A stretch of DNA of 64,000 bases from Scenedesmus sp. PABB004 (GCA_014905635.1 JABVCE010000021.1:248001-312000); one strand, 5' to 3'; counted from the stretch's first letter, positions 2,515 to 25,502 are shown. Notes: a model not told the origin generated them from the sequence alone. A program made the numbers and translations.

Positions 2515-3046
2515 GTGTGAGTGCGACGTCGCCCGCCTCGTCGCCAGCCTGGCGCCGCGGGCCGCGCTTCAGGGCGTGGCGCCAGCCACGCACATCACCT
2601 CGCCCCGCCGCGCACGGCGTCGCCATCGCGATTCACAGGCCGCTCGGACCAGCGCCCACGCGGTCACGGCAGGCTGCGCGCGCGTCGCGTTCTGCTGCTC
2701 GCGCGCGTCTCGCCCGGCGGCCTCGCCCGGCGTGACTGCGCGGCTCAAAGAGCGACTTCACTATTTATTGGCCGAACCAGGAGCTCGACGGTGAGTTATG
2801 GGCCCGGGCGGCGACGCGGGGGGCGCGGGATGCGCAGAAAACGCGGGCGCCCCTCCTGGCGCGAGGCGGGCCGCGCGGGATGATGGCGCGTGCGCATCAT
2901 GCACAAGAAAGTGGGCGTGAATTTATTTTCGGTCCCGCGCGGCCGCCCGTTGGCGGGCCTGACCGGCGCCGGCGGCGGCAGCAGCGGCCGGCCGCGCGGC
3001 CGCCCACGCCGCACCGCCGCGCCGCCGCAGCCCCCCGCACGCCACC

Positions 3047-6120: not shown

Positions 6121-8510
6121 GATGGCGGCGATGGCGGAGGTGCCGCAGGCGACCGAGGAGCTACTGGCCGCCTACGCGGCCCGCGTCGCGGGCGGCGGCG
6201 GTCGCGGCCGCGGCGGCGGCAGCGGCGGGGGCGACCCCGCTGCGGTCGCGGCCCTGCTGGCGGCGGGCGCGGACGCCGCAGCGCACGCCGGATACGCCAA
6301 GGGCGGCGGCCCGCTTCCCTTCCAGCACGGCGGCGCGGGATTCGTGGTCGAGCCGGCGCTGCCGCACGCCCTGCACGACCTGCTCGCGCCGCCGGGCGCC
6401 GCCGCGGCCTTCCCGCGCTGGCAGCTCGGCTTCACCGCCCGCAAACACGACACCGACCTGGGGGTCAAGGTGGACAAGCGCGCCGCCGCGCTGGCGCTGC
6501 AGCTGCCAGGCGGCGACCCCGTGCGGCTGGCGCTGGCCTTCACGCAAAACGGCGGCACCGCCCGGCGCGTGGGGCTGGGGCTGCGCCTGATGGTGGAGAC
6601 GGGCTCCATCGAGATCCGCGTGGAGCGCGACGCCGGCGCGCCGCCGCGCCTGCCCACGGCCCGGGCGCGCGTGTGGCGAGCGATCGTGTTCCGCGACGCG
6701 CAGCCGGCTCACGCCAAGCCGTACTGGGAGCGGCGGGAGAAGGAGGGCTGCTGGCGCGGGTGCGTCGCGCTCTACGTCTTTCCCGGCACGCTCGTGGACC
6801 CCGGCAAGCCGCTGCCGGCGCTGCTGCCGCGCGGCGCGGCGGCGCCTCCGGAGCCGCTGGCAGAGCTGCCGCCCGGGCAGGGCGCGGCGGCAGACGGCGG
6901 CGGCGCGCTGGGCGACGGCGGCGCGCTGGGCGACGGCGGCGCGCTGGGCGACGGCGGCGCGCTGGGCGACGGCCGGGCGCCCAGCCCAGACCTGGAGGAC
7001 TGGATCAGCACCCTCGCCGCCTCGCCGCACCTTCCCAGGCTGGACGCTGCGCTCGACGCCTGGCCGCCCCACCCGCCCGGCGCGGCAGCAGAGCCAGGAC
7101 CGGCGCCAGAGCCACTGCAGCAGGCGCCGCCCGCCGGCGGCGAGGAGGAGGACGAGCAGGCGGAGGAGCTCGCGCTGCTGCTGCCGGCGCTGTCGCCGGC
7201 GGCGGGGCCAGGCGCGAGCGGCGCGGCGCCGCCCGGGTCGCCGGCGCGGCGGAGCGCCGCGCAGCGCGCGCTGTCCACCGACGCCGCCCGAATCGGCGCG
7301 GCGCTGCTGGACGCGTGCTCCGGGCTCTGGGGCGCGGCGGTCAGCGCGGAGCAGCTGCGGGCGCAGCTGCTCGCGGCCGCGCGCCACAACGCGGCGGTCG
7401 GAGCTGCGCGGCTCGGCGCGGCGGGCGCGGCGCTGGCAGTCAACCTGCTGCAGCTGCGCGAGCCCTGGCTGAGCCGCACGCTGCTGCACTTGCTGGCCGG
7501 GCAGCAGTCGGCCTGGGAGCCCGCCGGCGTGGCGGCGCCGCCGGGCGCCGCTGCGCCGCTGGGCGGCCTCGTGCCTGTGCAGCCGCTGCCGGCCGACGTG
7601 CGGGTGCAGCTGCTGGGCATGCTGCGGGACGCGGTGACGGAGGGCTGGCCGGCGGACGGCAGCGGCGGCCGCGTCAGCCTCGCCGGCGGGCTGCGGGGCG
7701 CGGCGGCGTGGCGGCGCGCGCTGCGCGCGACCAACGCCAACGGCGCCACGCCCTGGCTCACCGCATGCACGTTTGCGCTGCCCGAGGTCATCGACTGGTT
7801 CCTGCGCGACGCCGGCCTGCGCCTGCGCGACCTGCTCGCGCCCACGCGCCGCGGTGCGGCCCGCGCGCGCGGCCGCTCGACCGGGCCGCGTGCCCCCGCG
7901 CGGCGCGACGCCTCGCTGCTCGCGCGGCCTGACTGCGCAGCCCGCCCCCTGACTCGCCCGCCTGCCCGCCCGCTGCGTGCCCGCTGCCGCGCGCGTCTGG
8001 CCGACGCCGCGTCGCCATCGCCACCGTCGCGCCGGCAGGGCGGCTCGCGTATCACGTCATCACCCGCGAGGCCGCCGAGCGCGCCAAGGGCACGAGCCCG
8101 CGCGGCCGCGACGCGGCGCGCTGCGGCGCCGCGCTCGCCGCGACGCTCGCCGCGCTCGCGGCCCGGCTCGAGGCCGCGGCCGCCGCGACGCTGGGCGCGG
8201 AGGAGCTGCGCGCGCTCGCCGCCGCCGCGGCAGGCGCAGGCGGCGGCGCTGGCGCGCCGGCGGCGCTGGCGCGCGCCGGCGCCAAGCGCCCCGCGCTGGA
8301 GCGCGGCGACGACGGCGACCGCGCCGCCGCGCTGGGCAAGCTGCGTGCCACGGTCGCCGCCGCGCACGGCGGCACGCTGGGCGCGTGGCTCGCGGCGCGG
8401 GGGCGCCACGTGTTCCACACGGCCGCGCCCACGTACGACGTGGCGCTGCTGGAGGCGGTGACGCGGCAGGTGCTGGCGGCCGAGGTGGCGCCCGCGCCGG
8501 CGTGCGCCTG
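6121..8510 (+). CDS. Hypothetical protein with N-terminal globular domain and degenerate ankyrin-like motifs
   Basis: Long coding-like exon from ATG 6121; NANGATPWLTACTFALPEVIDWFL and GRHVFHTAAPTYDVALLEAV resemble ankyrin repeats; probable intron ~7854-8038; stop at 8508-8510. Confidence 0.6.
6893..6972 (+). repeat. 18-bp coding tandem repeat (GDGGAL) x~4
   Basis: ggcgacggcggcgcgctg repeated in tandem. Confidence 0.85.
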
Positions 8511-8630
8511 ACGGCCGAGCGCGACGGCTGGCTGCGGCGGCGGAGCGGTTGCGGCGGGTGGCGGCGGCGGCGGCGCGCGGCGCGCCTACGAATGCACGGT
8601 GGCTTTGCAGCGCTCGTGGGCGCGCTCGAT

Positions 8631-8675
8631 GCGAGGTTGCGCGCAGGTTACGCGAGGCTGTCGACCGGAACGCGG
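8631..8675. repeat. 45-bp perfect inverted repeat, left arm (partner 19008-19052)
   Basis: gcgaggttgcgcgcaggttacgcgaggctgtcgaccggaacgcgg is the exact reverse complement of 19008-19052. Confidence 0.95.
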
Positions 8676-8681
8676 TCACTG

Positions 8682-9101
8682 GGGGCAACGCGGCGCGCGA
8701 AGCGGCGCGTGATGCGGCGGCGCGGCGCGGAGCGCGCTGGCGCGCGCCGGCAGCTGCGGCGCGCGGCCGGCTGGCCCGCGCCGCGCGGTCGCGCCGCCCG
8801 TGGGCACCTGCTTGCTGAGGTCCAGCGCCAGCTTGCGCGCCAGCTCCGCGAGGTGGCTGTCCTTCTCCACCCGCCCCACCAGCAGCACGATCACCGACGC
8901 GCAGCACTCGGCGTCTGCGCGGCGCGGCGGGTGAGCGCGCGCCGGCGCCGCGCCGGCCCTGCTCGCTGCCGCTCGCCGCCGCGCCAGCCCGCGCCGCCCG
9001 CCCCGCGCCCCGCTCGCCGCCGCCGCGCGGCGCACCCTTTTCGCTGGCCTTTGCGAACACCAGGTCCAGGTGGCCGGCCATGCGCTTGATGAGCTCATCC
9101 C
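8682..9101 (-). pseudogene. Captured 420-bp fragment of eIF3m (partial intron-exon-intron-partial exon)
   Basis: Identical by eye to 27249-27668 of the intact eIF3m gene, introns included (DELIKRMAGHLDLVFAKASEK / AECCASVIVLLVGRVEKDSHLAELARKLALDLSKQ). Confidence 0.93.
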
Positions 9102-9569
9102 GCCGAGGCCCCCGCCGTGTGGCTGTAGCGGTCGGTTGCGCCGTCGCCCGGCGGAGCTGCAGCAGGTGCGCGGCGCGCAGGAAGAGCGGCAGCATCGTGG
9201 CAGCCACAACGGAGAGGCGGGGGAGTGGCGGGCGAGGCGGTGGCGCGCCAGCGGTCGGGCGCGCGGCCGGCCGTCACGGCGGCGCAGCGCGCACAACAAT
9301 CGAGGCAACGTCGGATCGCGTGTGCAGTAGCTCGTGCCCCCTCGCTGCCTGCGACGGGTGCGGGATCGAGCGGGCGCGTTGCCGACGCCGGCGCCGCCCG
9401 CCGGCGACGTCGCCGGGTGCCGCTGCCGGCCGCCCACGGCTGCGTGTGCGACCTCTGCGGCGACGACGTGCACCCCGACGCAGAGGTGCGGCCGGGGAGC
9501 GCCGCGGCGGCGGTGGCGCCGGGCACTGCCAATCCCCCCAGCTGCTGGCCCCCCAGCTGCGCCGCGCAC

Positions 9570-9672
9570 CCGCGTTGACGAGCGCGTCGCCGCTCCACGC
9601 CGCGATGTCGCCCTGCGACAGCACGATCAGCGCCTCGCCGTGCTTGTACCACCTCGCGTTGGAGGAGGGCAT
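9570..9672 (-). pseudogene. Isolated first exon of a macro-domain (ADP-ribose binding/hydrolase) gene
   Basis: MPSSNARWYKHGEALIVLSQGDIAAWSGDALVNA followed by a GTGCGC donor; matches the macro-domain GDI...DAxVNA motif; no downstream exons found. Confidence 0.7.
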
Positions 9673-9700
9673 CCTGGCGCCGGGTCCGCGCCCGGGCGCG

Positions 9701-9778
9701 CTGCGGTGGCGGGCGGGCGCGGCTGGAGCGGCGCAGCAGCTGCGGTGGCGGGCGGGCGCGGCTGGAGCGGCGCAGCAG
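9701..9778 (+). repeat. 39-bp tandem duplication
   Basis: ctgcggtggcgggcgggcgcggctggagcggcgcagcag x2. Confidence 0.9.
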
Positions 9779-10312
9779 CGGCGCCGGCGCCCGCCCGCCG
9801 CCGCGCGCCGCCGACGCCGCCGCGCACGCTGTGGCGGTGGCGGTGCGCGACGGGGATGCCCAGGAGGAGGAAAGCAGCGGCGGCAGCCGGGCAACGTCGT
9901 GAGGGGCGGGGCCAACCGCCCTGAACCGCCTGACCGCCCGTGCTCTCGGTGCCCGAACCGCCAGCCCATCTGGCACCAGACCGTGCACGGTGAGAGGCAC
10001 ACGCGGCGGCCACCCGCGCCGGGCGAGAGCCTCCCGCGATGCAAGCTCGTCGATCGCGCGCCAGCACGCGGCGCGCGCGCTGCCGGCAGCCCCGGCCGGC
10101 GCGCGCCGCGATGGTCAGCCTGTGAGGCGCGTGTGTGGTGCGTGCGTCGCGGCGCGTCGGCCATCGCGCGCTCCGCGTCGGGCCCGTTCCGGAAGATTCA
10201 TGCCGCCCGCCCCGCCCCGCCGCGCCCCGCCCCGCCCCGCCCCGCCGCGCCCCGCCCGGCCCTCCTCCTCCCGACAAGCGCCAGGCCCCTGAGGTGGGGC
10301 GCGCTGGGCGCC

Positions 10313-10922
10313 ATGGAGCCGGAGCCGCCGCCGCCGATCGGCGGCGGGCAGCAGGAGGCGCAGCAGCGAGCGCGCGCCGGCGCGCCGGCTCAGGGCGCGC
10401 CCGCCGGCCTTCTCGCGCTGCCGGTGCTGAACTGGGGCGCGCCGCAGCCGGCGGCGCCGGCGCAGCCGCGCCCGCCGCCGGCGGGCGCCGGCTGGCGCCG
10501 CGCGTATCGCGGGCAGGAGGAGGACTGGCTGCAGCCGCCGCCCGCCGCCGCAGCAGCAGCAGCAGCAGCAGCAGCACCAGCACCAGCACCAGCAGCAGCG
10601 CGCGGGCGCGTCGGCGCCGCGGCAGCCGCCCGCTGCCGGCGGCTTCGCGTACCAGGAGGTGGTGCGCGGGCCGGCGCGCCAGGACCTGCCGGGGCACGAC
10701 TGTGCTCAGTGCCGCGACTTCTACGGCGCCCTCTCCACCTGGGGCGCGCCGGCGCCGGGCACCATGATGCTGCTCCCGTGCACGCACGCGCTGGCCCCGG
10801 CCGCGCTGCAGGCCGCGTCGCGGCACCGCGCCAAGCACGCGCCTCCCGAGACCCCGCCGGGGTTTTGGGACATCGGGTTCACGCCCGATGAGCAGGCGGC
10901 GGTGTTTACGCTTGGCGACCCT

Positions 10923-10958
<36 letters not shown>

Positions 10959-12016
10959 GGCGTGCCCGCCCCGTTCGGCGGGCGCAGCCGCAGCCGCAGC
11001 CCGCCGCAGCCGCCGCCGCAGCAGGGGCAGCAACCCAGCGACGCGTCGCCGCCGTGGCGCACCGTGGCGCGCGCGCGCCGCCCCCCCGGCGGCGGCGGCG
11101 GCGGCGGCGGCGGCGCGCTGCCCGCCGCGCGCGGGCCGGGCCCTGGCCGCGCAGCCGCGCTCGGCGGTGGCGGCAGGGGCAGCCCCGGGCCCAGCAGCAG
11201 CAGCGGGAGCGGCAGCGGCAGCGTCAGCGGGAGCGGCTGGCGCGGCGGCAGCCCGGCGCCGCGGCCGGACGACGCGCCGGTGCCGGCGCCGGCGCCGCCG
11301 CCGCCCGTGGCGCCGCAGCAGCGGCAGCCGCCGGCAGCCGCGCCGCGCGGCGCGCCGGCGCCGGCGCCGCCGCCGCCCGTGCCGCCGCCGCTGCAGCGGC
11401 AGCCGCCGGCGGCCGCGCCTGCCCCGTGCGGCGGGCGCAGCCGCAGCCGCAGCCCGCCGCAGCCGCCGCAGCCGCCGCCGCAGCAGGGGCGGCAGCCCAG
11501 CGACGCGGCGGCCGAGTGGCGCACCGTGGCGCGCGAGCGCCGCCCCCCGGCGGCGGCGCGGCGGCGGCGGCGGCGGCGGCGGCGCGCTGCCCGCCGCGCG
11601 CGGGCCGGGCCCTGGCCGCGCAGCCGCGCTCGGCGGTGGCGGCAGGGGCAGCCCCGGGCCCAGCAGCAGCAGCGGGAGCGGCAGCGGCAGCGTCAGCGGG
11701 AGCGGCTGGCGCGGCGGCAGCCCGGCGCCGCGGCCGGACGACGCGCCGGTGCCGGCGCCGGCGCCGCCGCCGCCCGTGGCGCCGCAGCAGCGGCAGCCGC
11801 CGGCAGCCGCGCCGCGCGGCGCGCCGGCGCCGGCGCCGCCGCCGCCCGTGCCGCCGCCGCTGCAGCGGCAGCCGCCGGCGGCCGCGCCTGCCCCGTGCGG
11901 CGGGCGCAGCCGCAGGCGCAGCCCGCCGCAGCCGCCGCAGCCGCCGCCGCAGCAGGGGCGGCAGCCCAGCGACGCGGCGGCCGAGTGGCGCACCGTGGCG
12001 CGCGAGCGCCGCCCCC

Positions 12017-12050
<34 letters not shown>

Positions 12051-15000
12051 GCTGCCCGCCGCGCGCGGGCCGGGCCCTGGCCGCGCAGCCGCGCTCGGCG
12101 GTGGCGGCAGGGGCAGCCCCGGGCCCAGCAGCAGCAGCAGCGGCAGCGGCAGCGTCAGCGGGAGCGGCTGGGGCGGCGGCAGCCCGGCGCTGCGGCTGGA
12201 CGACGCGCCGGTGCCGGCGCCGGCGCCGCCGCCGCCCGTGGCGCCACAGCAGCGGCAGCCGCCGGCGGCCGCGCCGCGCGGCGCGCCGGCGCCGGCGCCG
12301 CCGCCGCCCGTGGCGCCGCAGCAGCGGCAGCCGCCGGCGGCCGCGCCGCGCGGCGCGCCGGCGCCGGCGCCGCCGCCGCCCGTGGCGCCGCAGCAGCGGC
12401 AGCCGCCGGCGGCCGCGCCGCGCGGCGCGCCGGCGCGGGCGCCGCCGAAGCTCATGGCGCCGGCGGGCACGTGCACCGGCGCGCAGCTCGCGCTGCTGAA
12501 GCGCGAGCTGGAGGACAAGGGGTACGCGCTCGTGCACGGCCGCGCCAACGGCCTGTGCGGGTTCTCCCTCATTGCGATTGCCGTGCTGCGCATGCTGGAG
12601 GCGGCGGAGCTGCAGGAGCCGACCCACGACCTGCGCAGTTTCGAACCCGACGTGCTGGACATGTTGGACGAGCAGGCGGGCGAGCTGCGGTCGCGGACGG
12701 TGGAGCTCATCCGCGAGCTGGGCCTGAGCGACCAGCTGCACCCGAGCGGCGTGCCCTGGCGCGATGTGCTCGGCGTGGCCGGCGCGGACGCCGTGGAGGA
12801 GCTGGCGCGAGACCTGGAGGCCGGGGGCTACCCCAGCGAGGCTGAGCTGCGGGCGCTGTGCATGCGCCTGGCAGACTTGGTCTTCCTGACCGACGTCTAC
12901 AGCCCTGACACGCTCCTCATCGCCCTGCAGGAGCAGGGCGACGCGTTCCAGGCGAGCGAGGGCAACCGGCTCGTGGCGCTCGCGCTGCCGGCCGCCGCGG
13001 CGCCGGAGTTTGCGCCCGTGCTCGGGGCGCAAAACCCGCTGCCGCTCAACCACTGGGCGGCGGTGGTGCCGGCACGCAGGCCGCCGCCGCGCGGCGCGCC
13101 GGCGGAGCTGCAGCAGGTGCGCGAGCCGCCGCGCGGCGCGCCGGCGCAGCAGCGGCTGCAGGAGGCGGCGCCGCGCGCCGCGGAGCTCGCCACGGACAGC
13201 AGCGACGAGGAGGGCGGCCCGGCGGCGGGCCAGCCGCGGCAGCCGCTGCAGCCGCTGCAGCCGCTGCAGCCGCTGCAGCCGCAGCAGCTCGGGCGCAAGG
13301 AGCGCCGCGGCAAGGGCAACGGCGCCGCGGCGCCGCTGGGCACCAGCAACAGCGACAGCAGCAGCAGCAGCAGCCGCCGCCGCCGCCGCGCCGCGACCGC
13401 CGCCGCCATCGACGCGGCGTGGGAGAAGCCGGTGGAGCGCCGCGCGGAGCTCGACGCGTCCAAGGCGCGCGCCGAGGCGGCCGGGCCGTCCGACGAGGAC
13501 GTGCGGCGCTCCAAGCAGCGCGCGAGCTACGACGCCAAGCACGCGCGCCGCGGCGGCGGCGCCAGCGGCGGCGGCCAGAGCGGCCAGAGCGGCGCGCGCA
13601 GTGGCAGCGTCAGCGGCGGCGGCACGAGCCGCGCGCGCAGCGACAGCGCCGGCGGCAGCGCCGGCAGCAGCACCGGCGGCGGCACGAGCGGCGCGCGCAG
13701 CGGCGGGGGCACCCCGGGCCCCCCGCCCGCGCGCGGCATCGACCCCGCCGAGCGCGCGGCGCAGCCCGTGAGCGGCGCCGACTGGGAGGCGCTGCGCCGC
13801 CACGCGCAGGCCCGCGGCGAGGCCGCCCGCGCGGCGGCGATGGCGGCGGTGCTCTCGGCGCCCGCCGCCAGCGTCGGCTGGTCCGCCGGCAGCGCCGCGG
13901 CCAGCAGCGATGAGGAGGAGGGCGGCCCGGCGGCGAAGCGCGCGCGCGGCGCCGACGCGGCGCAGCGCCGCAGCCGCGGCCGCGGCCGCGCGCGCTCGCG
14001 CGGCAGCGCCAAGGCCGCGACGCGCGGCGGCCGCACGCCCTCGCGCGGCGGCGGCCGCGCGCGCTCGCGCGGCGGCGCGGCGGCGGCGCCGCGCGGCCGC
14101 CGCAAGCGCTCACGCGGCGCCGACGAGGCGTCGGGGCGTGCCTCGCCCGCGCGCGGTGCAGCGGCGGCCGAGGCGGGCGACAAGGCAGGGCGGCAGCAGC
14201 AGCAGGCGCTGCCGCGCCACTTCACCAAGCGCAGCGAGAAACGGACCGAGCAGGCCAAAAAGGCAGCGGCCGGCTCTGGCATGCGTGAGTGTGCCCGCCG
14301 CGCGGCGCGCTGCCGGGCCGCCGGGCCGCTCTCTCGGCACCCAGCGCCGCCGCCGCCCCGCGCCCTGCCCGCGCCCCCCTCACCTGCCCTCGCCCGCCCG
14401 CCCGCCCGCCCGCCTCAGGCGTGCGCGTCTGCGCGCTGCGCGGCGCCGTGCGCAAGCCAGAGGTGGTCCCCTACCTCGAGGCGCTCGTGTGCGCCTACAG
14501 CCGGCTGGGCATCCTCGGCCGCGACGCGCACCACGTGGCGCTCGTGTATGGGGCGAGGTGCGCGCGCGCGCGGGTGGGGCGCGCCCGCGCGCTTTGCGCC
14601 CCCTCCTCCGCGCCGCCCGCCGAGTCGCGCCGCCCGCCCGCCCGCCCGCCCGCTGCGCAGCCGGCTGTACGGGCTGGACACGCGCCAGCCGCCGCCGCAG
14701 CCGGCGGCGCAGGAGCAGGGCCCGCAGCAGCAGCAGCCCCCGCCCGCAGCGCCGCCAGCCCAGCAGCCGGCGCCGCCGCCGCCCGCGTGCGCCTGCTACC
14801 TGCAGGCCGCGTGCGGCGGCGCGCCGCTCGTGTACGACCTGATGAACTTTTTTAGCCAGGGCAACTGGCGGCGACACGGCACCGGCCTGTCCAGCGACCT
14901 GCGCCACGCGCTGGAGCAGGCCTGCGGCGTCAACGAGCTGCAGCGCGTGCCCCTGCCGGCCTGGGTGACCGGAACCCTGCACCACCACCTGCTCAACCCT

Positions 15001-16705
15001 CTCGCGGAGCTGTACAACACCAACATGCAGCTCCACCTCGCTGACGGCCAGCGCCTGGAGAAGGCGCTCGACGCCGCCGCCCTGCAGGCGTGGTTTGCCG
15101 CGGGCTGCGCCGGCACGCCCAGCCGCGCCGCGCGCGACTGCCTCATCGCCGGCGGCGCGGCGCTGCTGTACAGCGCGTCGCCGCTGCTCTGGGAGCGCCA
15201 GGGCGTGCTGCAGCCGGGCGAGGGCGTGGTGCCCGCGGCGGCGGGCGACGGCCAGGACGCCGGCCGGCTGCGGCTGGCCATGGCGATGATGCGCGACATG
15301 CTCGCGCAGATGCGCCTGCACCTGGAGCAGCCCTACCCGGCGGCGGCGGACGGCGAGGCGCGCGCGCCCGCGGCCGGCGCGGCGCGCACGCGCCAGGCGG
15401 CAGGGGCGCAGGCGACGCCCAGCCTGCAGCGCTGGGAGTCGGACGAGGCCGCCGGCAAGCACGGCCGCGTGCTCGACTGGGCGCGGAGCGGCATGCCGCG
15501 CGCGCCGGACGCGGGCGCGCAGGCAGGGGGCGCGCCGCTCGTGCCGCAGCCGCCGGAGCCGCTGGCGCACGGCGCGGGCGCGGCGGCGCGGCAGCAGCAC
15601 GACGCGGCCTACGACGCCTGGCGCGCGGCGCTGGCCCGGCAGCTCGAGGGCCTGGCGTACCGGGAGGGCGACGCCGACGCCATGGCGCGCCGCGTCGCGC
15701 GCGACTTTGTCGTCATGCTCGGCCAGCAGCACATGTTTGCTGCCTGCGCGCCGCGGCTCGCGGACTCGCTGGCAGCCCAGCAGGGCGCGGCGGCGCGGCC
15801 GGCGCTGGAGGCGATGCTGCGCCGCGCCGCGTCGCTCGGGGCGGCCCCGGAGCCGGCGTCGGCCGGCGCGCTCGCGGCGGCCGTCGAGTCGCTGGCAGAG
15901 GCGCTGGACGGCAGCAGCGGGGGCAGCGGCAGCGGCAGCAGCAGCAGCAGCCGCAGCCGCGGCCAGCGTCCGCCGGCGCCCCCCAAGCTGCTGGACGCCA
16001 GCGCCCAGGAGCCGCGCCTGCGCGAGCTGCAGCGGGCGCGCGAGCTGGGCAAGCTCGAGGCGGCGGTGCAGCGCCTGCGCGCCGCCGTGGATGCCAGCGA
16101 GGCGGCCGTGCGTCTGCGCAAGGAACCCCTCAAGGGCCTGCAGCGGGAGGTCGCCGGCGCTACGGTCCCTGATCGCCACGCCCGCAACCGGCTGCGCCGC
16201 CTGCAGCGCAAGGACGCGCACGCGGCGGCGCTCCGGCGCCGGCTGGCCGTAGAGGAGGCGCGGCTGCTCCGCGCCCGGGGGCAAGGCGCCGCGCCGGGCG
16301 CGGCGCCGGGCCAGGGCCGGGCGCGGCGCTGCCGGCCGCGGCCGCGGAGCGGCTGCGGCTGGCGCTGGCCGCGCTGACCGCCGCCGGCGACGCGACGGTG
16401 GGGGCCGACCTCGCAGCCGTGGAGGCGGAGTGGCAGGCTGCCATGGCGCAGCACCACGAGCGCGACGCGGCGCTCGTGCAGCACCAGCGGGCCCTCGCGC
16501 GACCGCACGGCGCGGCGGTGGCGCCCGACGCGGACGCGGCCCGCCGCGCGGCGGACGCCGCGCGCGCCGCGCGCGACCAGGGCGCGCGGCTGCTGGGCGA
16601 CTGCGGCGCCCGACTGGCGGCCGCGCGCGGCCACCTGGCGGCCGCGCGCGGCCACCTGGCCGCCGCAGCGGCCGCGCAGGGTCGCGCTGCGCCGGCGCCG
16701 CCGGC

Positions 16706-16756
<51 letters not shown>

Positions 16757-18569
16757 GCGCGCGCCGCGCACGCCCGAGGAGGCGGCGGCGGCTGTCGCGG
16801 CGCTGCGTCGCGATGTCTCGGCCGGCTGGCGCCACGCGGTGTGCGCGACGCTCGAGGCGGTGCTGGCTGCGGCGACCGCCGCCGGCGCGGCGCCGGCGCC
16901 GCCCGGCGGCCGCAGCGGCGGCGCGCAGCCGCCGCAGCGCGCCGGCGGCGCGGGGCAGCACCCCGACGCGCTCGTCGCGGTCACGGGCGCGTGCAAGGTG
17001 CTGCGCGGCCTGCGCTCGCGGCACGCCGCGCGCGTGGCGCTGCCCAAGCGGCGCGCCTTCACGCTGGCGCCGGTGCCCAAGTACGGCACCCAGCACCTGC
17101 ACCTGTCCACCTCGGGCATGCAGGCGCTGGACGCAGCGCTGCGCGCGCGCCAGGCCAGGGCGCCCGCGGGGGGCCAGCCGGCAGGCCAGCCGCCGCCGCC
17201 GCCGCCGCCGCCACCGCCGACCCAAGAGGGCGGGGGCTACGATCCCGTTTGGGATGCATATTTTGATTTTGGCCGGCGCCCCGGGCGCGCGCGCGGCGTG
17301 CTGCACGCCAACACGCGCTTCGCGGGCTCTGTGACGTTTGATCTGGCGGCGCTGCACGTGCGCGTGCGCGTTGAGGGCGCCGCCGACCCCGCCCCGCGCC
17401 GCGGCCAGCAGTCGCGCGCCGCCAAGGCGGCGCAGCGCGCGGCAGAGCACCGCGCGGGCGTGGAGGCAGCGCGGCGGCTGCTCTGCGACGCGCTGGCGCC
17501 GCACGGCGTGGCCGACGAGGCGGCGCTCGACGCGCTGCCGCTCGACCCGTGCGAGCTGCGCGGCGTGGAGGGCCTGCCGCCGGGGCACGCGCTGCGCGGC
17601 GCGGCCGCGGCCGTGCACGCGGGCGTGCGCATAGTTGGAATCGACCCGGGCCGGGCGCGCATGATATGCGCCGCGACTTGGCGGCAGGGCCCGGGCTGCA
17701 CGCGCGTCGCGCACCGCCGCATCGCGCAGCGGCGCTGCCCCAACGCGCCGCGCCACCGCGGCGACCACGGCCGCCGCTACGAGGCGGAGCGCATCATCCG
17801 AATAAAGACCGCCGCGCACCGCGACTCGCGCGGGATCGAGCGGCACAGCCTGTGGCAGCAGGGGCGGCCGGGGCGGCCGGGGCGGTACGACCGCCGCCCG
17901 CCCGGCGGCGGCGACTGCGTGCATGCCTGCCTGAACCGCGTGCCTGCCTACTCGGGCACGAGCGTCGCCGCCGCCGGGGCGTGGCGCAACGGCCGGGTGC
18001 ATCATGTGTTGGACAATGCATTCGCATATAGCTTGCTTGCGTGCCGTGCAGAGTGTGCGTGGCGGCTGCGGAAGCACGGGCTGAAGCAGCGCGCGCTGCA
18101 TGCGGCGATTCAGTTGACTGCATACGGCCGGGTCTTTGTGCGCGGGCGCGTCCGGCAGCACGCGCGCCTGCCCGCCGACCTGCCCGCGGTGGTGCTGGGC
18201 ATCGGGGACGCCAGCCTGGGCATGGGGGGCTGCATCTCGGGGCCGGGGCCGCCGCGGCAGGCGCTGCTGGCGCTGCTGCGCACTTATTATGCGCGCCGGC
18301 GCGTCGCCGCGGTGCTCATGGACGAGCACCGCACGAGCGTCACCTGCTCGGTCTGCGGGGCGCGCATGGAGAAGCTGCGGGGGATTTACGGTCTGCTACA
18401 GTGCCCCGGGTGCACGGTCGTCGCGCCGCGCGACGACAACGCGGCGCGCAACATCTGCGCGCTCACGCTGCACGAGTTGCTGCGCGGCGGCCGCGGCACG
18501 GCGGGCGGCGCGCGCCTCGCCGGCGCGTTCCGGCAGGCGGCCGCCGCCGCGGTGGACCCCCCGGCGTGA
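10313..18569 (+). CDS. Giant Fanzor1 (TnpB-like RNA-guided nuclease) fusion: CtIP/Sae2-C, Pro-rich repeats, OTU-like, Fanzor REC/WED/RuvC/ZnF (~2,670 aa after indel correction)
   Basis: gccATGg at 10313. Introns 14285-14418 and 14558-14660 (GT-AG, phase-consistent). Indels at ~10541, ~11545-11560 and ~16317 are needed to join the frames. Fanzor1-like motifs LAELYNTNMQLHL, FTLAPVP, VWDAYFDF, FAGSVTFD; RuvC-I IVGIDPG, VVLGIGD, MDEHRTSVTCSVCG...CPGC...RDDNAARNI. Confidence 0.7.
10644..10880 (+). other. CtIP/Sae2/Com1 C-terminal (SAE2) domain
   Basis: FAYQEVVRGPARQDLPGHDCAQCRDFY...ASRHRAKHAPPETPPGFWDIGF carries the YxEVVR, CxxC, RHR and TPxGFW signature of the CtIP C-terminus. Confidence 0.9.
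10977..12437 (+). repeat. Three ~455-540 bp coding tandem repeats with nested 72-bp (PAPAPPPPVAPQQRQPPAAAPRGA) units
   Basis: Units start at ~10977, ~11430 and ~11899 (GGRSRSRSPPQ...WRTVAR...GRGSPGPSSSS...RPDDAPVPAP); near-identical DNA. Confidence 0.9.
12520..13070 (+). other. OTU-like cysteine protease domain
   Basis: GYALVHGRANGLCGFSLIA (Cys codon 12556) ...ELRSRTVELI... NHWAAVVP (His codon 13051) resembles the OTU xGDGNCxFxA ... HY/W motifs. Confidence 0.55.
17625..18456 (+). other. Fanzor/TnpB RuvC nuclease plus C4 zinc finger, catalytic residues intact
   Basis: Asp at 17643 (GIDPG), Glu at 18324 (DEHRTS, the ZnF-proximal position typical of Fanzor1), CxxC...CxxC, Asp at 18432 (RDDNAARNI). 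Confidence 0.93.
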
Positions 18570-18990
18570 GCGGCGTGTGCGGTGCGCTGCGCTCTCCGTC
18601 CTGGGCAGGACGTTAAAAGGCCTCTTGCTGTTGTGTTGTGTTGCCAGGTTAGGTCAGGCGTGTGCGCGTGCGTTTCTCGCCTTGTCACCCGTTCCGGGTG
18701 GGGGGGACCCCTCGCGGGGCACCGACCTGCGGGCCGGTCCCAAACCGTCATGCCTCGCGCCGCTGTGGCCTGTTTCAGGCGGCCGGCGATCAGAGGATGC
18801 CCATGGTCGGTGTTGGCGGCGGCGGCGCGCGCGCGCGGCGGTGGCAGCGCCGCGCACGCGCGCCGCGCGCCCGCGGCGCCGGGGCGCCCCCCGGGGCGCC
18901 CCGGCAGCCCCCATCCCCCCAGCCGCCGGTGTTGAGACCACCGGCCGGCGCTCCCACGGCGGTAGCGAGGCCGGGGAGCACGCCCAGGCG
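18459..18990 (+). ncRNA. Putative omegaRNA scaffold / element right end (5' boundary uncertain)
   Basis: Lies over and downstream of the Fanzor stop, is retained almost unchanged in the non-autonomous copy, and has terminal hairpins at 18925-18945 and 18947-18984. TnpB/Fanzor omegaRNAs are known to derive from the right end. Confidence 0.6.
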
Positions 18991-19007
18991 CGGTCACTCT
19001 GCATCGC

Positions 19008-19052
19008 CCGCGTTCCGGTCGACAGCCTCGCGTAACCTGCGCGCAACCTCGC
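19008..19052. repeat. 45-bp perfect inverted repeat, right arm (partner 8631-8675)
   Basis: ccgcgttccggtcgacagcctcgcgtaacctgcgcgcaacctcgc. Confidence 0.95.
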
Positions 19053-19227
19053 CCGCGCTCCCCGCCCCGCACTCCCCCGGTCCGCCGCGCCGGTCTCACC
19101 GACTCGTCTCTCCGCCCAGCGCACGCAGCCGCGCCCGCCGCGCCGCCCGCGCCCGCCAGCCCGCGCGCGAGCTGCTCGCGGGGCGTTGCCGCTCGTGGGG
19201 CGGCCGCAGCTCGTCGAATTGCTCGCC

Positions 19228-20973
19228 ATGGGCAACCCTGAGGTCTCCGACGTCTCGATTGCGGTCGGCGACCCGCCGGGCGGCCTCGGCGATGCCGAGG
19301 CGGCGGCCGCCGTCAAGCCGGCCGCCGCGGCGCGGCCGGGCCTCTGCAAGCGCGTGCTGCGCTACGCCCTGGAGCAGTGGTGAGTGGGCGTTCCCCCCAG
19401 CTCGGCTGCGGGCGCCTCGGCCGCCTCGGCGCGCCCAGCGGCCGCCGCGCCGCGCAGCGCCGCCCGCCTGGCGCCAGCCGCGCCCGGTGCACGCCCGACC
19501 GCCCGCCCGCCCGACCGCCCGCCGCCGCGCCAGGTTCATCCTGGGCCTGGGCGTCGTCATCGGCTTTGCCGCGGCGGTGCCGCGCCTCGGCGCGACGGGC
19601 GGGTGGCTGCGCGCCGAGTACAGCATCAAGCTGCCGGCGATCGTGCTCATCTTCGTAATCAGCGGCCTTGGCCTCAAGACCAAGGCCCTGCTCGGCGCGG
19701 CGGGCGACGTGCGCCTGCACGCGCTCGTGCAGGGCCTCTCGCTCGGCGCGCTGCCCGCGCTCGGCGCCGCCGTCGCGGCGGGGCTGCGGTCGGCGGGGTT
19801 CAACCCGCCGCTGTGCGACGGGCTCGTGATCATGGCGTCCATGCCGACCACGGTGTCGACCAACGTCGTCTACACCGCGCGCGCGGCGGGCAACGAGCCC
19901 GCCGCGCTCGTCAACGCGGTGCTCGGCAACATCCTAGGCATCTTCATCACCCCCCTCTGGCTGCAGCACTTCCTGGACGTCTCCGGCGCCGCGCCCTACG
20001 CGGCGGTGCTGGTGGAGCTGAGCTACACCATCATCGCCCCGCTCCTCGTCGGCCAGGCGCTGCAGTACGGCGCGCCGCGCGCGGTGCGGCGCGGCGGCGG
20101 CTGGGCGTGGCGCGGCGGCGGCGGCGGCGGCGGCGCGCAGCCTGCGCGCAGCCTGCGCGCAGCGGCGGCGGCTGAGCGCGGCACGGCGCGCAGCCTGCGC
20201 GCCCGCCCATGCTCGCCCGCACGCGCTCGCCCGCGCGCGCCCGCCCACGCTCGCCCGCCCCGCTCTCGCAGGTCGCGTGGATCAAGGCGCACATCAACAC
20301 GGCCAACGTCTCGTCCGCCTGCATCCTCGCGCTCGTGTGGCTCACGTTCTGCAACACCTTTTCCAACGGCGCCGCGCGCAAGGTCCCCGGCGGCGACGTC
20401 GCCGCGATGGTCGCGCTCAACGTCGCGCTCTTCGCCGCCTTTGCGGCGCTCTCCTTCCTCGTCGCGTGGCCGCCGCCGCCGCTGCGCTGGGTGCGGCGCC
20501 TGCTGCGCGTGCGCCGCCCCGACGCGGTCGCGGTCGTCATCTGCGGGTCGACCAAGACCGTCGCGCTGGGTGTGCCGCTCATCAACGTCATGTACGGCAA
20601 CGTCCCCACCGCGGGGCTGCTCGCGATGCCGCTCATCATCTACCACGCCCTCCAGGTCCTCCTCGGCGGCCTGCTCATCGCGCCGCTGCGCGCTTGGTGC
20701 CTCGCGGCGCCGCCGCCAGCTGCAGAGGAGGGGGAGCACGCCGGCGCGGCGCGCGGCGCCGCGAGCGCGTCGTCGCGGCGCTGGAGCCTCATGGCGCTGC
20801 TGCTGCCGGGCGGGCGCAGCAGCCAAGCGGACCTGGGGCCGCGCCCAGGGCCGCGCCCAGGGCACCACCAGGGGCACCAGGAGCAGCAGCACCAGGAGCA
20901 GCAGCCGCAGCACCACCAGGAGCAGCAGCCGCAGCACCACCACCAAGAGCAGCCGGCCGCGCTGCCGCGCTGA
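19228..20973 (+). CDS. Sodium/bile-acid cotransporter 7-like (SLC10A7/SBF-like) membrane protein, 3 exons
   Basis: EQWFILGLGVVI, IVLIFVISGLGLKT, MASMPTTVSTNVVYT, NAVLGNILGIFITP, VICGSTKTVALGVPLI, PLIIYHALQ. Confidence 0.9.
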
Positions 20974-21212
20974 GTGCGACCACGCGGCTGGGCGGTGGGG
21001 CGGTGTAATTGCAGCCCAGGACGCGGCCGCCGCCGGCGGCTGGGGGGCGCGGGCGAGCCCCCGCGCGCGCGAGCTGCGCGCCGCGACCGCCGGCGGCGGC
21101 GCGGCGCGCGCAGGGACGGGCGCGGGCCGGCGCGCGTCACACGTGCGACGTCGGAGGCCGGCGATCGGGGGCGCGCCCGCCACGTTCCGCGCGAGGCGAG
21201 CAAGTTAGGTGC

Positions 21213-21975
21213 TGCCGCGGCGCGGCGCGGAGCGCGCTGGCGCGCGCCGGCAGCTGCGGCGCGCGGCCGGCTGGCCCGCGCCGCGCGGTCGCGCCGCCCG
21301 TGGGCACCTGCTTGCTGAGGTCCAGCGCCAGCTTGCGCGCCAGCTCCGCGAGGTGGCTGTCCTTCTCCACCCGCCCCACCAGCAGCACGATCACCGACGC
21401 GCAGCACTCGGCGTCTGCGCGGCGCGGCGGGTGAGCGCGCGCCGGCGCTGACCCTGCACGAGTTGCTGCCCGGCGGCCGCGGCACGGCCGGCGGCGCGCG
21501 CCTCGCCGGCGCGTTCCGGCAGGCGGCCGCCGCCGCGGTGGACCCCCCGGCGTGAGCGGCGTGTGCGGTGCGCTGCGCTCTCCGTCCTGGGCAGGACGTT
21601 AAAAGGCCTCTTGCTGTTGTGTTGTGTTGCCAGGTTAGGTCAGGCGTGTGCGCGTGCGTTTCTCGCCTTGTCACCCGTTCCGGGTGGGGGGACCCCTCGC
21701 GGGGCACCGACCTGCGGGCCGGTCCCAAACCGTCATGCCTCGCGCCGCTGTGGCCTGTTTCAGGCGGCCGGCGATCAGAGGATGCCCATGGTCGGTGTTG
21801 GCGGCGGCGGCGCGCGCGCGCGGCGGTGGCAGCGCCGCGCACGCGCGCCGCGCGCCCGCGGCGCCGGGGCGCCCCCCGGGGCGCCCCGGCAGCCCCCATC
21901 CCCCCAGCCGCCGGTGTTGAGACCACCGGCCGGCGCTCCCACGGCGGTAGCGAGGCCGGGGAGCACGCCCAGGCG
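21213..21975 (+). mobile_element. Non-autonomous internally deleted derivative of the Fanzor element (763 bp)
   Basis: 21213-21448 matches 8713-8948 (eIF3m-derived left end), joined through a gcgc microhomology to 21445-21975, which matches 18459-18990. Flanked by direct repeat agcaagttaggtgc (21199-21212 and 21976-21989). Confidence 0.92.
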
Positions 21976-22174
21976 AGCAAGTTAGGTGCGCTCCTTGCTC
22001 GCCCCCAGGGCCCTCCGCTGCCGCCCCCCAGACCCGAGAGTCCGACGCGCCCCTCGCCGCAGTCGACTGCCGCCCGCGCGCCCCCAAAGCACTCACGGCG
22101 AACGCTCGCGCGCTGCGGTGCCCGTGAGTCCATGGCCGCGTGACCTGCGCGTCGCACCGATCAGAGACCGCGCC

Positions 22175-24197
22175 ATGCAGCTGCGCGCCGGCCTGACCGG
22201 CGCGCGGGCGGGCGCGGGCGGGCGGGCGCCATGCCGCGCGCTGCCCGCGGCAGCCCACGCTTCGGGGAGCGGCGCCGGCGTCGCCCCCAGTCTACGTCGG
22301 CGAGGAGCGGCCGGTGCGCGCGCGCCGGGGGCGTGGGGGCGCCGGGAGGGCCGGGCGCGGCAGCGCAGCGCCAAATTTGTTTGCCCTCGCGCCCGCGCAC
22401 GCGCTGCGCGGCCGCCAGGGGGCCCAGGCGCGTGCGCGCCGCCCGCCACCGCGCCGGCGGCGAGTCCTCACGCCCCCGGCGCGCGCCGCGCAGGCGCTGG
22501 TGATGCTGCGCTGCCGGCAGACGCACCGCGGCGCGCGCGGAGCGTCGCAGCCCGCGGCTACGGCGGCTACGAGCAGAACACCTTCTCGCCGAGCTCCCAG
22601 CCGCCGCAATTCTCCAGCCCCGCCGGCAGCAGGCGCGCGGCGCGCGGCGGCGCCAGGCTGCCGCTGCTGCCGCGCGCGCCGCGCCGCGCGCGGGGCCGGC
22701 GCCGCGCGTGCGCACGCGCCCCCGCGCCGAGCACCGCCCCGCCGCCGCCTTGCCGCCGCTGCCGCGCGCGCAGGCCGCAGAGCCCGCAGCAGCAGACGGG
22801 CACGGCGCTCGCGAGCCAGGAGGGCGGCACCGCGCTCAAGGCCAAGGAGCAGCCCAAGACGGTGCAGGTGCGCTTCTGGCTGAAGTTCCACGTCGACTAC
22901 GGCCAGACGATCCGCATCATCGGCGGCCACGAAGCCATGGGTGCGCGGCGAGGCGGGCCGCAGCAGCAGCAGCCGCGCGCGCGCGCGCGCGCGCGCGAGT
23001 CGCGGCCCTTGCGCCGCGCGCGCGCCTCACCGCACGCGCGCCGACGCGCGGCGGCAGGCGCGTGGAACCTCGCCAAGGCGCCGTTCCTGCGCTGGAGCGA
23101 GGGCGACCTGTGGAACGTGGCGCTCGAGGTCGCCGCCGGCGGCGTGTACGAGTACAAGTGCGCCCCGCGCCCCCGCCGCGCCCGCGCCATCCAGGGCCCG
23201 GGGTTGTTGTCGCGCCAGGGGGCCGCCGCCCCGCGTGCCGCCCCGCCCGCCCACGCCGCGCCGCCGCCGCCGCCGCGCCCCCAGGTACGTCGTCGTCGAG
23301 GGCGACGGCGTGACCGCGGCGAGCTGGCAGCGCGGCGCGAACAACGTGCTCGCGCTGCAGCTCAGCGACGAGGAGGTGGAGGTCTACGACAACTGGTGAC
23401 CAGGGGCCGGCGCGGGCCAGCAGCGCGGGCCAGCAGCAGGGGCCAGCAGCAGGGGCCAGCAGGGGACGGCGGCGGGGTGGCAGCAGCAGGACGCGCCGAG
23501 CCGCTGCCGCGGGCGCCGCCGCCGCGGGCGCCGCCTGGCGGAGGCCCGCCCGCGCCCACTCACCCGCTTCCGCGCGCGCTCACTCGCGCGCTCCCGCTCG
23601 CAGGAAAAACGCGCCCGGCGCGCTCGTGCTGGTGGACGGGACGGAGATCACGCGCGAGCGCAAGCTGCTCGCGTGGGCGGGCGACATGACGCTGCAGCGC
23701 ACGGAGCTGCGGCGCACGCGCATGGAGCTGGCGCAGGCGCGCGAGGAGATCCGCGTGCTGCGCGCCGAGCTCAGCGTGCTGCGCATGGAGGTGTCGGAGG
23801 CCAACATCGCGCGCGCGGCGGCCGAGGCGCGGCAGCTCGAGCTCGAGCGCGCCAACAGCTCTCTGCGGCTCGAGGTCACCGCGAGCCAGGCGAGCGCGCG
23901 CAGCACGATGGAGGAGGCGGTGCGGCTGCTGAGTGAGTGGCGCGCGCGCGCGCGCGCGGGGCGCCGCGGGGCGGGCGGCGGCGGCCGGGGCGCGCGGGCG
24001 GCGGCCAAAGCGGGCGGCGGCCGGGGCGGGCGGTCGGCGGCGCGGCCGCGTCTGCGCCTGCGCGCTCACCGCCCCCCGCCCCCCTCTTGCGCCGCCAGAC
24101 AACATGGATGACGATGGCGGTGACGGCCCCGACGGCGGCGGCGGCAGCAGCGGCAGCGCGTACGCTGCCGCGCCGTCCAGCAGCGGCAGCCACGGCA

Positions 24198-24230
<33 letters not shown>

Positions 24231-24553
24231 TGTTTGGCAGCCTCTTTGGCGGCTTTGGCGGCGCGAGCTCGCGCGCCAACGCGCGCGCGCCGGGCGACCA
24301 GGACCAGGGCGGCGGCCCCGGCGGCGCGGCGGGCGCGGTCGTCGCGGCGGCGGCGGCCATGGCCGCCGCCGCCGACGCGCGGCGCCACGGCGACGGCGGC
24401 GGCGAGCCCGGCGCCGCGCCGGGCGGCAGCGGGACGTACAGCCCCAACACGAGCAGCGGCACGCGGAGCTACACGCCCCCGAGCGGCGCCAACGGCGTCG
24501 CGGGCGGCAGCTCGGAACCGGTCTCCGCCAACGGCGTGCCCAAGGGGCAGTGA
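22175..24553 (+). CDS. CBM20 starch-binding-domain protein with coiled coil, probably plastid-targeted (spliced)
   Basis: VQVRFWLKFHVDYGQTIRIIGGHEAMG/AWNLAKAPFLRWSEGDLWNVALEV...YEYK/YVVV...WQRGANNVL is CBM20-like; followed by a heptad-rich exon. Confidence 0.85.
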
Positions 24554-25502
24554 GGCGCGCGCGCCGCGGGGCGACGCGCCTGCGCCGCGCCGCGCCGCGC
24601 CGCCGGTGATCTGCCGAGGAGGAGGGGCCAGCAGCGCGGCTGGCTGGCTGGCGGGGGCCGCACGGCCCGCGCGGGCCGCGCGGCGGCAGGCAGGAGAGTC
24701 TTTTGCAAGGGCACGCTTGCTTGTTGCGAGGGCGGGGCTGCAGCGGGTGGCTGGCACGCCCACGACGCACACAGAGACCCACGACACCACCGGCTCCCCA
24801 CGCGGCGGCGCGACGCCGGTCGCGCCGCGCCGCGCATGGCAGACGCGTGCCATGCCGGCGGGGCCCCTTGAGGCGCGGGCCGACGGAGAGGGCGCGCGGG
24901 GGGCGCGGGCTATAGCGCCCGGCGCCCCGCGTGGCTGGCCGACGCGCGCCCAAGGCGGGGCAGGGCGGGCGGGGGGCGACGGCTGCGGGGGCTGAAGGTG
25001 GGAGGGGCCGGGGGGCGTTTGTGTGTTCAGTTGTCTGCGCGCGGTCCTGACGCCGGGCGCGCGCCGTGTGTCGGTGCGCGCGGCGCGGCGGCGCCAGCGC
25101 CGGTCAATCGAAGAGCCAGCGGGCCCACGCGACGGTGGCCGCACCTGCTCCCGCGCACGCGGCCCCGCGGCGGGCGCGGCGCGCGCGGCGCCCGTCCGTC
25201 CGCCGCGCCGACGCGGCGGCGGCGGGCGCCGGCACGCCCGGCAGCGCCCGCCGCGCGGCGCCGTGCCGCGCCGTAGTATCGTTAGGGGCGGGGGCGGCGG
25301 GCCGCCATCTGTCGGGCCGCGGGCGGGAGAGAGCCGCACTGCGCTGGCAACACACCGTGTACACCCGCGCCGCGGCCGATCGAGACCGACTCGCTCCGTG
25401 GTTACCCCGCGCGTGCGCGCCCCGCCCGCGCTCGCTCCTCTCCGCCCCGCCGCCGCCGCCGCCACCGCGGCGCGGCCCCCGCGCCGCCGCACCGCGGCGC
25501 GC

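Follow-up and report, generated by a model that had tools for sequence, protein, structure and literature searches.

How does a transposon that encodes no transposase come to have one fixed end, one ragged end and target site duplications (TSDs) of different lengths? This question is raised by a Fanzor-carrying element in Scenedesmus sp. PABB004 (GCA_014905635.1), which occurs as two copies, A and B, in a stretch of 64,000 nucleotides (JABVCE010000021.1:248001-312000). This whole stretch is called the window here, and positions are counted from its first letter. An initial annotation, made from the DNA alone, had proposed that copying started at the right end and was primed by a break and templated by DNA, possibly driven by Fanzor plus host repair, or else that the element was mobilized in trans. 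The explanation we favor, with a probability of roughly 0.55, is that A and B are members of a single non-autonomous transposon family that carries Fanzor1 and is of the CRe-1/2/3 kind, and that they were inserted by copying anchored at the 3' end, with an HUH-type enzyme acting in trans. Coordinates of all features are collected in Table 1.

Self-BLAST of the window detected three related segments, all inside 19 kb: copy A, copy B and a segment at 27249-27668. Both copies (2/2) end at the same final base, as seen by self-BLAST and direct reading. Their shared terminus is ...CACGCCCAGGCG, with ...CAGGCG as its last bases, and it adjoins two unrelated flanks. The left ends are offset by 32 bp, since the first element base of B corresponds to A 8713. 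Copy B is without A 8949-18458, an internal deletion of about 9.5 kb, and keeps the last 111 nt of the Fanzor open reading frame (ORF) and the entire non-coding tail. It is an internally deleted derivative of A and not a second full copy. A search for terminal inverted repeats (TIRs) gave no inverted match of at least 10 nt between the last 100 nt of A and A's left end. The fixed right end, ragged left end and lack of TIRs reported in the initial annotation were thus all borne out. More sensitive blastn and tblastx searches found no further copies of A in the rest of the window, and a 25-mer from the right end had no exact match in metagenome_contigs or in genome_contigs (metagenome and prokaryote collections).

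Each copy is flanked by an exact direct repeat, of 8 bp for A and 14 bp for B. The bases directly before the left TSD (CG in A, AGGCG in B) repeat the last bases of the element, which allows the TSDs to be read as 10 and 19 bp as well. The sequence upstream of the left TSD is ...GGAACG in A and ...GAGGCG in B; the T-rich tetranucleotide TTTT is not present. At the other junction of B, the last three bases of the TSD (GTG) also match A 8709-8711, a small 5' microhomology. When 20000 random boundary pairs were drawn from the window with 2 nt of slack, flanking direct repeats of at least 8 bp arose in 0.28% and repeats of at least 14 bp in 3 of the 20000. Both duplications are real and sit exactly at the homology boundaries. 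The variable TSD lengths and the resemblance of the target to the end of the element, two further points made from the sequence at the outset, were confirmed.

Empty sites were reconstructed by removing the insert and one TSD. The empty site of A has two perfect inverted arms of 45 bp around a spacer of 14 nt; in B the arms, also perfect, are 10 bp long and the spacer is 12 nt. At each target, the TSD starts within the left arm and the 5' junction lies within the loop. Positions inside a loop of 3-20 nt make up 1.4% of the window when the perfect stem has at least 10 bp and 5.6% when it has at least 8 bp. A 34-mer taken from the 45-bp arm has no other occurrence in the window, and 100 shuffles produced 0 matches to it. 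A and B are the only two insertions behind the target motif and the preference for palindromes, both of which were noticed after the fact. The 45-bp inverted repeat, which is unique in the window, is placed between the upstream region and a gene for an SBF-like transporter. We also considered the 45-bp arms as the TIRs of a larger element and rejected this, as B has A's exact right end without the repeats and with a TSD of its own, and no adjacent TSD flanks the arms. No account of palindromic or cruciform targets was found in the literature consulted; in the part of the Helraiser paper used here, the palindromic motif is the transposon's own 3' hairpin (Grabundzija et al. 2016, PMC4778049).

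These junctions also bear on whether the copies arose by transposition. In a repeat-rich region of 80% GC, local segmental duplication, gene conversion or misassembly could account for three related segments lying so close together, for the 100% identity of A and the eIF3m locus described below across 420 bp, and for frameshifts located in GGC-rich repeats. This explanation is highly improbable, given two independent pairs of exact flanking repeats of 8 and 14 bp whose positions coincide with the homology boundaries, a single right terminus against two unrelated flanks, and empty sites that both restore perfect palindromes, an outcome that random duplication or misassembly would not give.

The left end of A holds host DNA. 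Its 420 bp are 100% identical to a segment of the host eIF3m gene and run antisense to Fanzor. The exon borders of this minus-strand gene are canonical (GT...AG), and one of its exons is 100% identical to protein P0049, given by its source as eukaryotic translation initiation factor 3 subunit M from a Scenedesmus strain. The captured piece starts in the middle of an exon, continues through the following intron, a full exon and the greater part of a second intron, and stops 20 nt before the splice acceptor. The source locus is 8 kb downstream of A, and copy B retains 236 bp of the piece. Its introns and antisense orientation show that the filler came from DNA, so the left 420 bp of A are genomic DNA copied into the 5' end, and neither a native terminus nor spliced RNA. 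Because the filler is an unspliced, antisense, genomic piece, the template of the copying was probably DNA.

Which proteins does the element encode? All 69 stop-to-stop ORFs of at least 70 aa that overlap 8600-19100, in six frames, were scanned with Pfam at E <=1. Every 2-kb bin of the window has a G+C content of about 80%, and GCC/CAG triplet runs are plentiful. Since all six frames contain long ORFs, the length of an ORF is not a sign of coding here. Only two families scored above their curated cut-offs inside the element, Cas12f1-like_TNB and SAE2/CtIP; the remaining output consisted of weak matches below the cut-offs and the flanking host gene. Among the 69 ORFs there was no reverse transcriptase (RT), DDE transposase, Rep/HUH protein, tyrosine recombinase or serine recombinase. 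The same enzymes were absent from the rest of the 64-kb window, where 375 other ORFs of at least 90 aa gave host genes only. The earlier statement that the element lacks such enzymes can thus be extended to the whole window. Since neither element nor window contains a transposase, mobilization in trans, which had been offered as an alternative, is likely.

The Cas12f1-like_TNB match (PF07282, E 1.2e-9) is at the C-terminus of ORF 16173-18569 and represents the Fanzor C-terminus. At the RuvC-II position, Gly replaces the usual Glu, a substitution described for Fanzors in the account of Jiang et al. (2023, PMC10530073). An exhaustive HMMER search returned 41 relatives at E <=1e-3, the best being P0005 (38% identity, E 1.4e-20). 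The 20 that were looked up had no informative names beyond "hypothetical protein" or "transposase", and one was a spurious insect protein. A word-indexed search with the Fanzor ORF gave no matches, probably because they were crowded out by low-complexity words. With a profile of four sequences of the Fanzor set, the top solved structures were Fanzor1 of Parasitella (E 6.9e-5) and of Spizellomyces (E 8.6e-4). The 10 loci of relatives that were retrieved were weak (E 2e-6 to 9e-5) and of no use for comparing termini. Downstream of the Fanzor stop codon, the non-coding tail has a somewhat more stable fold than its shuffled versions (z -3.0). By comparison with the published Fanzor guide RNAs (PMC10530073, as far as described there), it is presumed to be a guide-RNA (omega/fRNA) scaffold; Rfam gave no family above noise over 8000-28000. 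If Fanzor and such a guide had cut the targets, the 20 nt past A's right end, which would be the guide, should resemble the target of B. They are unlike it, and the same is true vice versa, which speaks against Fanzor as the driver.

The initial annotation had also counted retained Fanzor introns as an argument, which we could not confirm. The RuvC half aligns with its homologues as one continuous frame (17634-18482), and no convincing GT-AG intron was found at the frame change near 16.2-16.4 kb. The frame changes upstream of the RuvC half resemble frameshifts in GGC-rich repeats. One such shift lies in a tandem repeat and leads from the frame of the CtIP-like domain into the frame that runs on into 12448-16377; it arises because 469, the unit length, is not a multiple of 3 and because unit 2 has small indels. 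An intron joining the frames at 10768 and 16173 was tried and rejected, since only implausible candidates of 329-380 nt were available.

Insertions mediated by long interspersed nuclear elements (LINEs), such as 5'-truncated L1 copies and processed pseudogenes, share a fixed 3' end and are truncated at the 5' end; their TSDs vary in length, their junctions have microhomology and their 5' ends are chimeric. Template switching in L1 is known to yield internal deletions and chimeric 5' ends. A and B resemble such insertions in all of these respects, and their combination of one constant 3' end with ragged 5' ends and TSDs of 8-19 bp is the classical signature of target-primed reverse transcription. 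One could therefore propose that a LINE RT acted in trans on an unspliced transcript of Fanzor sense and began the copy at the 3' end of this transcript. The microhomology, which measures 2 and 5 nt at the 3' junctions and is GTG at B's 5' junction, would fit, and a LINE is among the transposons that Jiang et al. (PMC10530073) describe near Fanzor1c genes. We nevertheless regard this as distinctly unlikely. Pfam scans of the 69 and 375 ORFs found no RT or endonuclease domain in element or window, so an RT partner is lacking there, and the terminus has no poly(A), A-rich or simple-repeat tail. The right end is not the end of a transcript, as a guide RNA or mRNA precursor should continue into the flank. 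The filler comes from genomic DNA, and an antisense, intron-containing piece of eIF3m would need an antisense template resembling a pre-mRNA. Finally, the closest published case has termini that, in its authors' description, match bona fide Helitrons (PMC3627910).

The differences between the two copies are concentrated at their junctions. B differs from A by five substitutions, at A 8716, 18464, 18467, 18484 and 18503, all of which are G/C transversions, and by a G run that is shorter by 1 nt. All five (5/5) lie at most 45 bp from B's left end or from the deletion junction, and the other 633 aligned bp contain none. If substitutions were uniform, the chance of finding 5/5 in the 135 junction-proximal bp would be about 2e-4, by simple arithmetic done post hoc. 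This clustering suggests error-prone synthesis around template switches, and the G/C transversions are a possible signature of translesion-type synthesis at those switches.

The second Pfam family is a C-terminal domain of CtIP/Sae2, encoded on the same strand as Fanzor, with the motifs EVVR...GHxCxxC...SRHR...TPPGFW. The nearest database proteins are only 38-42% identical to it, so a recent origin from an annotated host gene is not obvious. In opening hairpin-capped breaks, Mre11 is assisted by CtIP/Sae2, and this role is suggestive in view of the palindromic targets. Judged by titles and abstracts, no literature linking CtIP cargo with Helitrons was found.

Such observations are what the idea of break-primed copying without any transposase would draw on. 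A double-strand break made by Fanzor or at a fragile palindrome would invade the right end of the element through microhomology and be extended leftward, and the CtIP-like domain of the element might help to process the hairpin break. Both targets are palindromes, which are break-prone sequences, the junctions have microhomology and clustered mutations, the filler is from a nearby locus, and the element itself encodes the CtIP/Sae2 C-terminal domain. Craig speculates, in the part of the paper concerned, that Fanzor gives second-strand cleavage in C. reinhardtii (PMC10288648). We consider this idea unlikely: invasion by microhomology would not begin at the identical base of ...CAGGCG in 2/2 copies, and the guide derived from the flank of either copy is unlike the target of the other. 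The one Chlamydomonas Helitron2 Fanzor reported as tested showed no cleavage in vitro (PMC10530073), and the frameshift in the tandem repeat cuts the CtIP frame off from the downstream coding sequence. What can be kept of the original proposal is the anchor at the right end, the imprecise left end and, probably, the DNA template, and what is not supported is Fanzor as the driving force. Four features had escaped the initial annotation: the internal deletion that makes B a derivative of A, the eIF3m piece at A's left end, the inverted repeats at both targets and the CtIP/Sae2 domain.

The same observations allow a bolder and very doubtful proposal, in which the one-ended, variable-TSD insertions of Fanzor elements would be directed to extruded hairpins or cruciforms. 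With one arm nicked by the element, the opposite strand would be opened at the apex of the loop, and the CtIP/Sae2-like domain, possibly once in one frame with the Fanzor protein, would recruit Mre11-type opening and resection. If this were true, a nuclease and a repair factor, and not a classical transposase, would form the machinery that inserts the 5' end, and the decade-old puzzle of TSDs in green-algal HUH-type elements would be explained.

Under the explanation we favor, 3'-anchored copying by an HUH-type enzyme in trans, the enzyme would most likely be a RepHel protein that nicks the target after ...CG, in DNA able to become single-stranded, such as these two hairpin-forming palindromes. 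The same enzyme would cut after ...CG at the end of the element and join the target nick to the element's 3' end. Target bases that resemble the element's last bases are expected if one nuclease cuts both. Copying would then proceed from the 3' end toward the 5' end, which the transposase would leave unfinished. Host repair synthesis, with template switching and microhomology, would complete it, and this step would produce the 5' truncation, the deletion, the eIF3m filler from 8 kb away, the junction mutations and the variable TSDs. Fanzor and its guide RNA would be cargo, or serve in later maintenance, and would not be the cutter of these two targets. The events are very recent, so the junctions are unblurred.

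The closest known counterparts are the CRe elements of C. reinhardtii. As described by Bao and Jurka (2013, PMC3627910), CRe-1/2/3 are non-autonomous Helitron2 elements bearing Fanzor1, with intact 3' ends, frequent 5' truncation coupled with internal deletions, and no transposase. Their truncated copies have TSDs of about 7-19 bp and short extra sequence downstream of the 5' TSD, and insertion is after TTTT; the authors interpreted this as IS91-like "one-ended transposition" from the 3' end. According to Jiang et al. (2023, PMC10530073), all six CrFNuc loci are within Helitron2 elements whose TSDs are short. In the same study, the guide RNA was placed in the 3' untranslated region, twenty further copies contain only the guide RNA, and cleavage was not detected in vitro.

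The likeness to these published descriptions is close. In both CRe-1/2/3 and CrFNuc, Fanzor1 is near the 3' end and is followed by a non-coding tail of a few hundred nucleotides, as in copy A; compared by eye, CRe-1 (Additional file 8, PMC3627910) has a tail of about 0.4 kb after the Fanzor stop. Like CRe-1/2/3, the element here has no transposase, intact 3' ends, and 5' truncation with internal deletion (in B), its TSDs of 8 (10) and 14 (19) bp are within the CRe range, and its 420-bp eIF3m piece corresponds to the extra sequence captured at the 5' end. Short derivatives that keep only the guide-RNA tail are common to both. A subterminal 3' hairpin 11-12 nt from the end may be a further likeness, as the hairpin here ends 11 nt before the terminus, with a fold that is not unusual in this DNA. 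The differences from the CRe description are a target ending in ...CG or ...GGCG before the TSD instead of TTTT, a length of 10.3 kb compared with about 4 kb for CRe-1, the CtIP/Sae2 C-terminal domain, and the palindromic targets, which the CRe description as consulted does not report. In every feature testable in the window except the T-rich target, the element matches the CRe description. The comparison is with that published description, and membership of the Helitrons proper, which needs termini homologous to those of a RepHel element in the same genome, is a proposal.

Several observations weigh against this explanation. None of the 444 ORFs scanned in the window encodes RepHel, neither copy contains the native 5' end of the family, where a 5' hairpin and a 5'-T would be expected, and a k-mer comparison with the 3' region for asymmetric terminal inverted repeats gave matches at chance level only. 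The subterminal hairpin is not unusual in this DNA, as 13.7% of 8000 random 31-mers from the window give an equally good or better fold. In the Chlamydomonas families the target is a T-rich tetranucleotide, which neither insertion here has; this may be a family-specific preference, seen at n=2. The palindromes may just be commoner in intergenic DNA, where insertions are tolerated, and the preference for them, like the target motif, was spotted post hoc in two cases. Canonical Helitron chemistry leaves TSDs unexplained, and the published CRe case is itself mechanistically unexplained.

Other mobile systems were compared from their published descriptions. Helraiser, a Helitron1 element (Grabundzija et al. 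2016, PMC4778049), also has a hairpin 11 nt upstream of its 3' end, moves by copy-and-paste, captures host DNA by imprecise end recognition, and shows a 2-nt overlap between new ends and target. In the same account, however, its 5' end (the left terminal sequence, LTS) is essential and fixed and its 3' end is variable, the reverse of what is seen here, and it makes no TSDs and uses an AT target. One-ended transposition of IS91, as cited in PMC3627910 and PMC4778049, resembles our case in rolling-circle copying from one defined end with variable stops, but it is bacterial, leaves no TSDs and has a tetranucleotide target. Replitron-1 and Replitron-N1 of C. reinhardtii, as described by Craig (2023, PMC10288648), are similar in that their variable TSDs contain a short target motif (RG), they move by copy-and-paste, they lack TIRs and their right end is associated with double-strand breaks. 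Unlike the element here, they have 6-bp direct terminal repeats and "fuzzy" right ends with parental flank (PMC10288648). Here the right ends are exact in 2/2 copies, B is without any of A's flank, and the ragged end is the left one; the Replitrons also have a Y1 Rep, and Pfam found no Rep in the element. TnpB elements of the IS200/IS605 or IS607 type have a TnpA (Y1 HUH or serine recombinase), no TSDs and two defined ends, whereas Pfam found no TnpA here, TSDs are present and the left end is ragged.

Table 1. Features of the window (positions counted from its first letter)
Feature	Position	Strand	Description	Basis
Copy A	8681-18990	+	10.3 kb, non-autonomous, Fanzor gene inside	window self-BLAST, direct reading, Pfam
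Captured host DNA in A	8682-9101	-	420 bp, 100% identical to 27249-27668; antisense to Fanzor	
Source of captured fragment	27249-27668	-	inside host eIF3m gene	
Host eIF3m gene	25506-28156	-		P0049 mapped by tblastn
Copy B	21213-21975	+	763 bp; A 8713-8948 fused to A 18459-18990	self-BLAST, alignment
Left TSD of A	8673-8680	+	CGGTCACT; 8 bp, or 10 bp counting preceding CG	
Right TSD of A	18991-18998	+	CGGTCACT	direct reading
Left TSD of B	21199-21212	+	AGCAAGTTAGGTGC; 14 bp, up to 19 bp	
Right TSD of B	21976-21989	+	AGCAAGTTAGGTGC; followed by loop remainder 21990-21993	
Left arm at A's target	8631-8675	.	perfect 45-bp inverted repeat; partner 19008-19052	
Right arm at A's target	19008-19052	.	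45-bp inverted repeat	inverted-repeat search
Left arm at B's target	21195-21204	+	GGCGAGCAAG; 10-bp inverted repeat, overlapped by left TSD (21195-21212 in all)	
Right arm at B's target	21994-22003	+	CTTGCTCGCC; 10-bp inverted repeat, after right TSD and loop	
CtIP/Sae2 C-terminal domain coding	10599-10910	+	PF08573, E 2.3e-13, 51.6 bits (cut-off 19.8)	
Tandem repeat	10928-12406	+	469-bp unit, 3.2 copies, 93% matches; Pro/Gly/Ala-rich coding	
RuvC and zinc-ribbon half of Fanzor	17634-18569	+	GIDPG, DEHRTS-CxxC...CxxC, RDDNAARNI; stop codon 18567-18569	
Non-coding tail	18570-18990	+	421 nt from Fanzor stop to fixed right end; whole in B	
Subterminal hairpin	18950-18979	+	10-bp stem, one bulge; ends 11 nt before right terminus	
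SBF-like transporter gene	19535-20690	+	host gene, between copies A and B	
Two GDSL-lipase-like ORFs	1840-4255	+	host genes	

Between the CtIP-like domain and Fanzor, the stretch 12448-13080 (plus strand) looks globular and has a Cys motif (NGLCGF) and a late NHW that recall OTU-type proteases. The Atlas lead to OTU was weak (rank 9, score 0.91, OTU on 19% of the cluster members), no Pfam match was found for this stretch, and its AlphaFold model was poor (pLDDT 42.6). The identity of the stretch as an OTU protease is unproven. Further along the window are host genes for a CCCH zinc finger, a subtilase, a dual-specificity phosphatase and DnaJ.

The signature of these two insertions is a further instance of a published pattern that is mechanistically unsolved. 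HUH transposons should leave no TSDs, and the variable-length TSDs of Fanzor-carrying Helitron2 elements and of Replitron-1 are unexplained. The puzzle was raised by Bao and Jurka (2013, PMC3627910) and again by Craig (2023, PMC10288648), who points to variable TSDs of Replitron-1 too and calls the Helitron TSD case unexplained. The novelty that the initial annotation implied for the signature is not supported, because the parts of PMC3627910 that describe Fanzor1 CRe-1/2/3 of C. reinhardtii already have it in print. Here the one-ended Fanzor signature is seen outside Chlamydomonas, with four clues at the junctions: palindromic targets, a second junction in the hairpin loop, clustered G/C transversions, and filler from 8 kb away. 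From two insertions only, the new leads are the palindromic targets, the transversions clustered at junctions, the capture over a distance of 8 kb and the CtIP-like cargo, and the last of these is a lead on how such elements might use host break repair.

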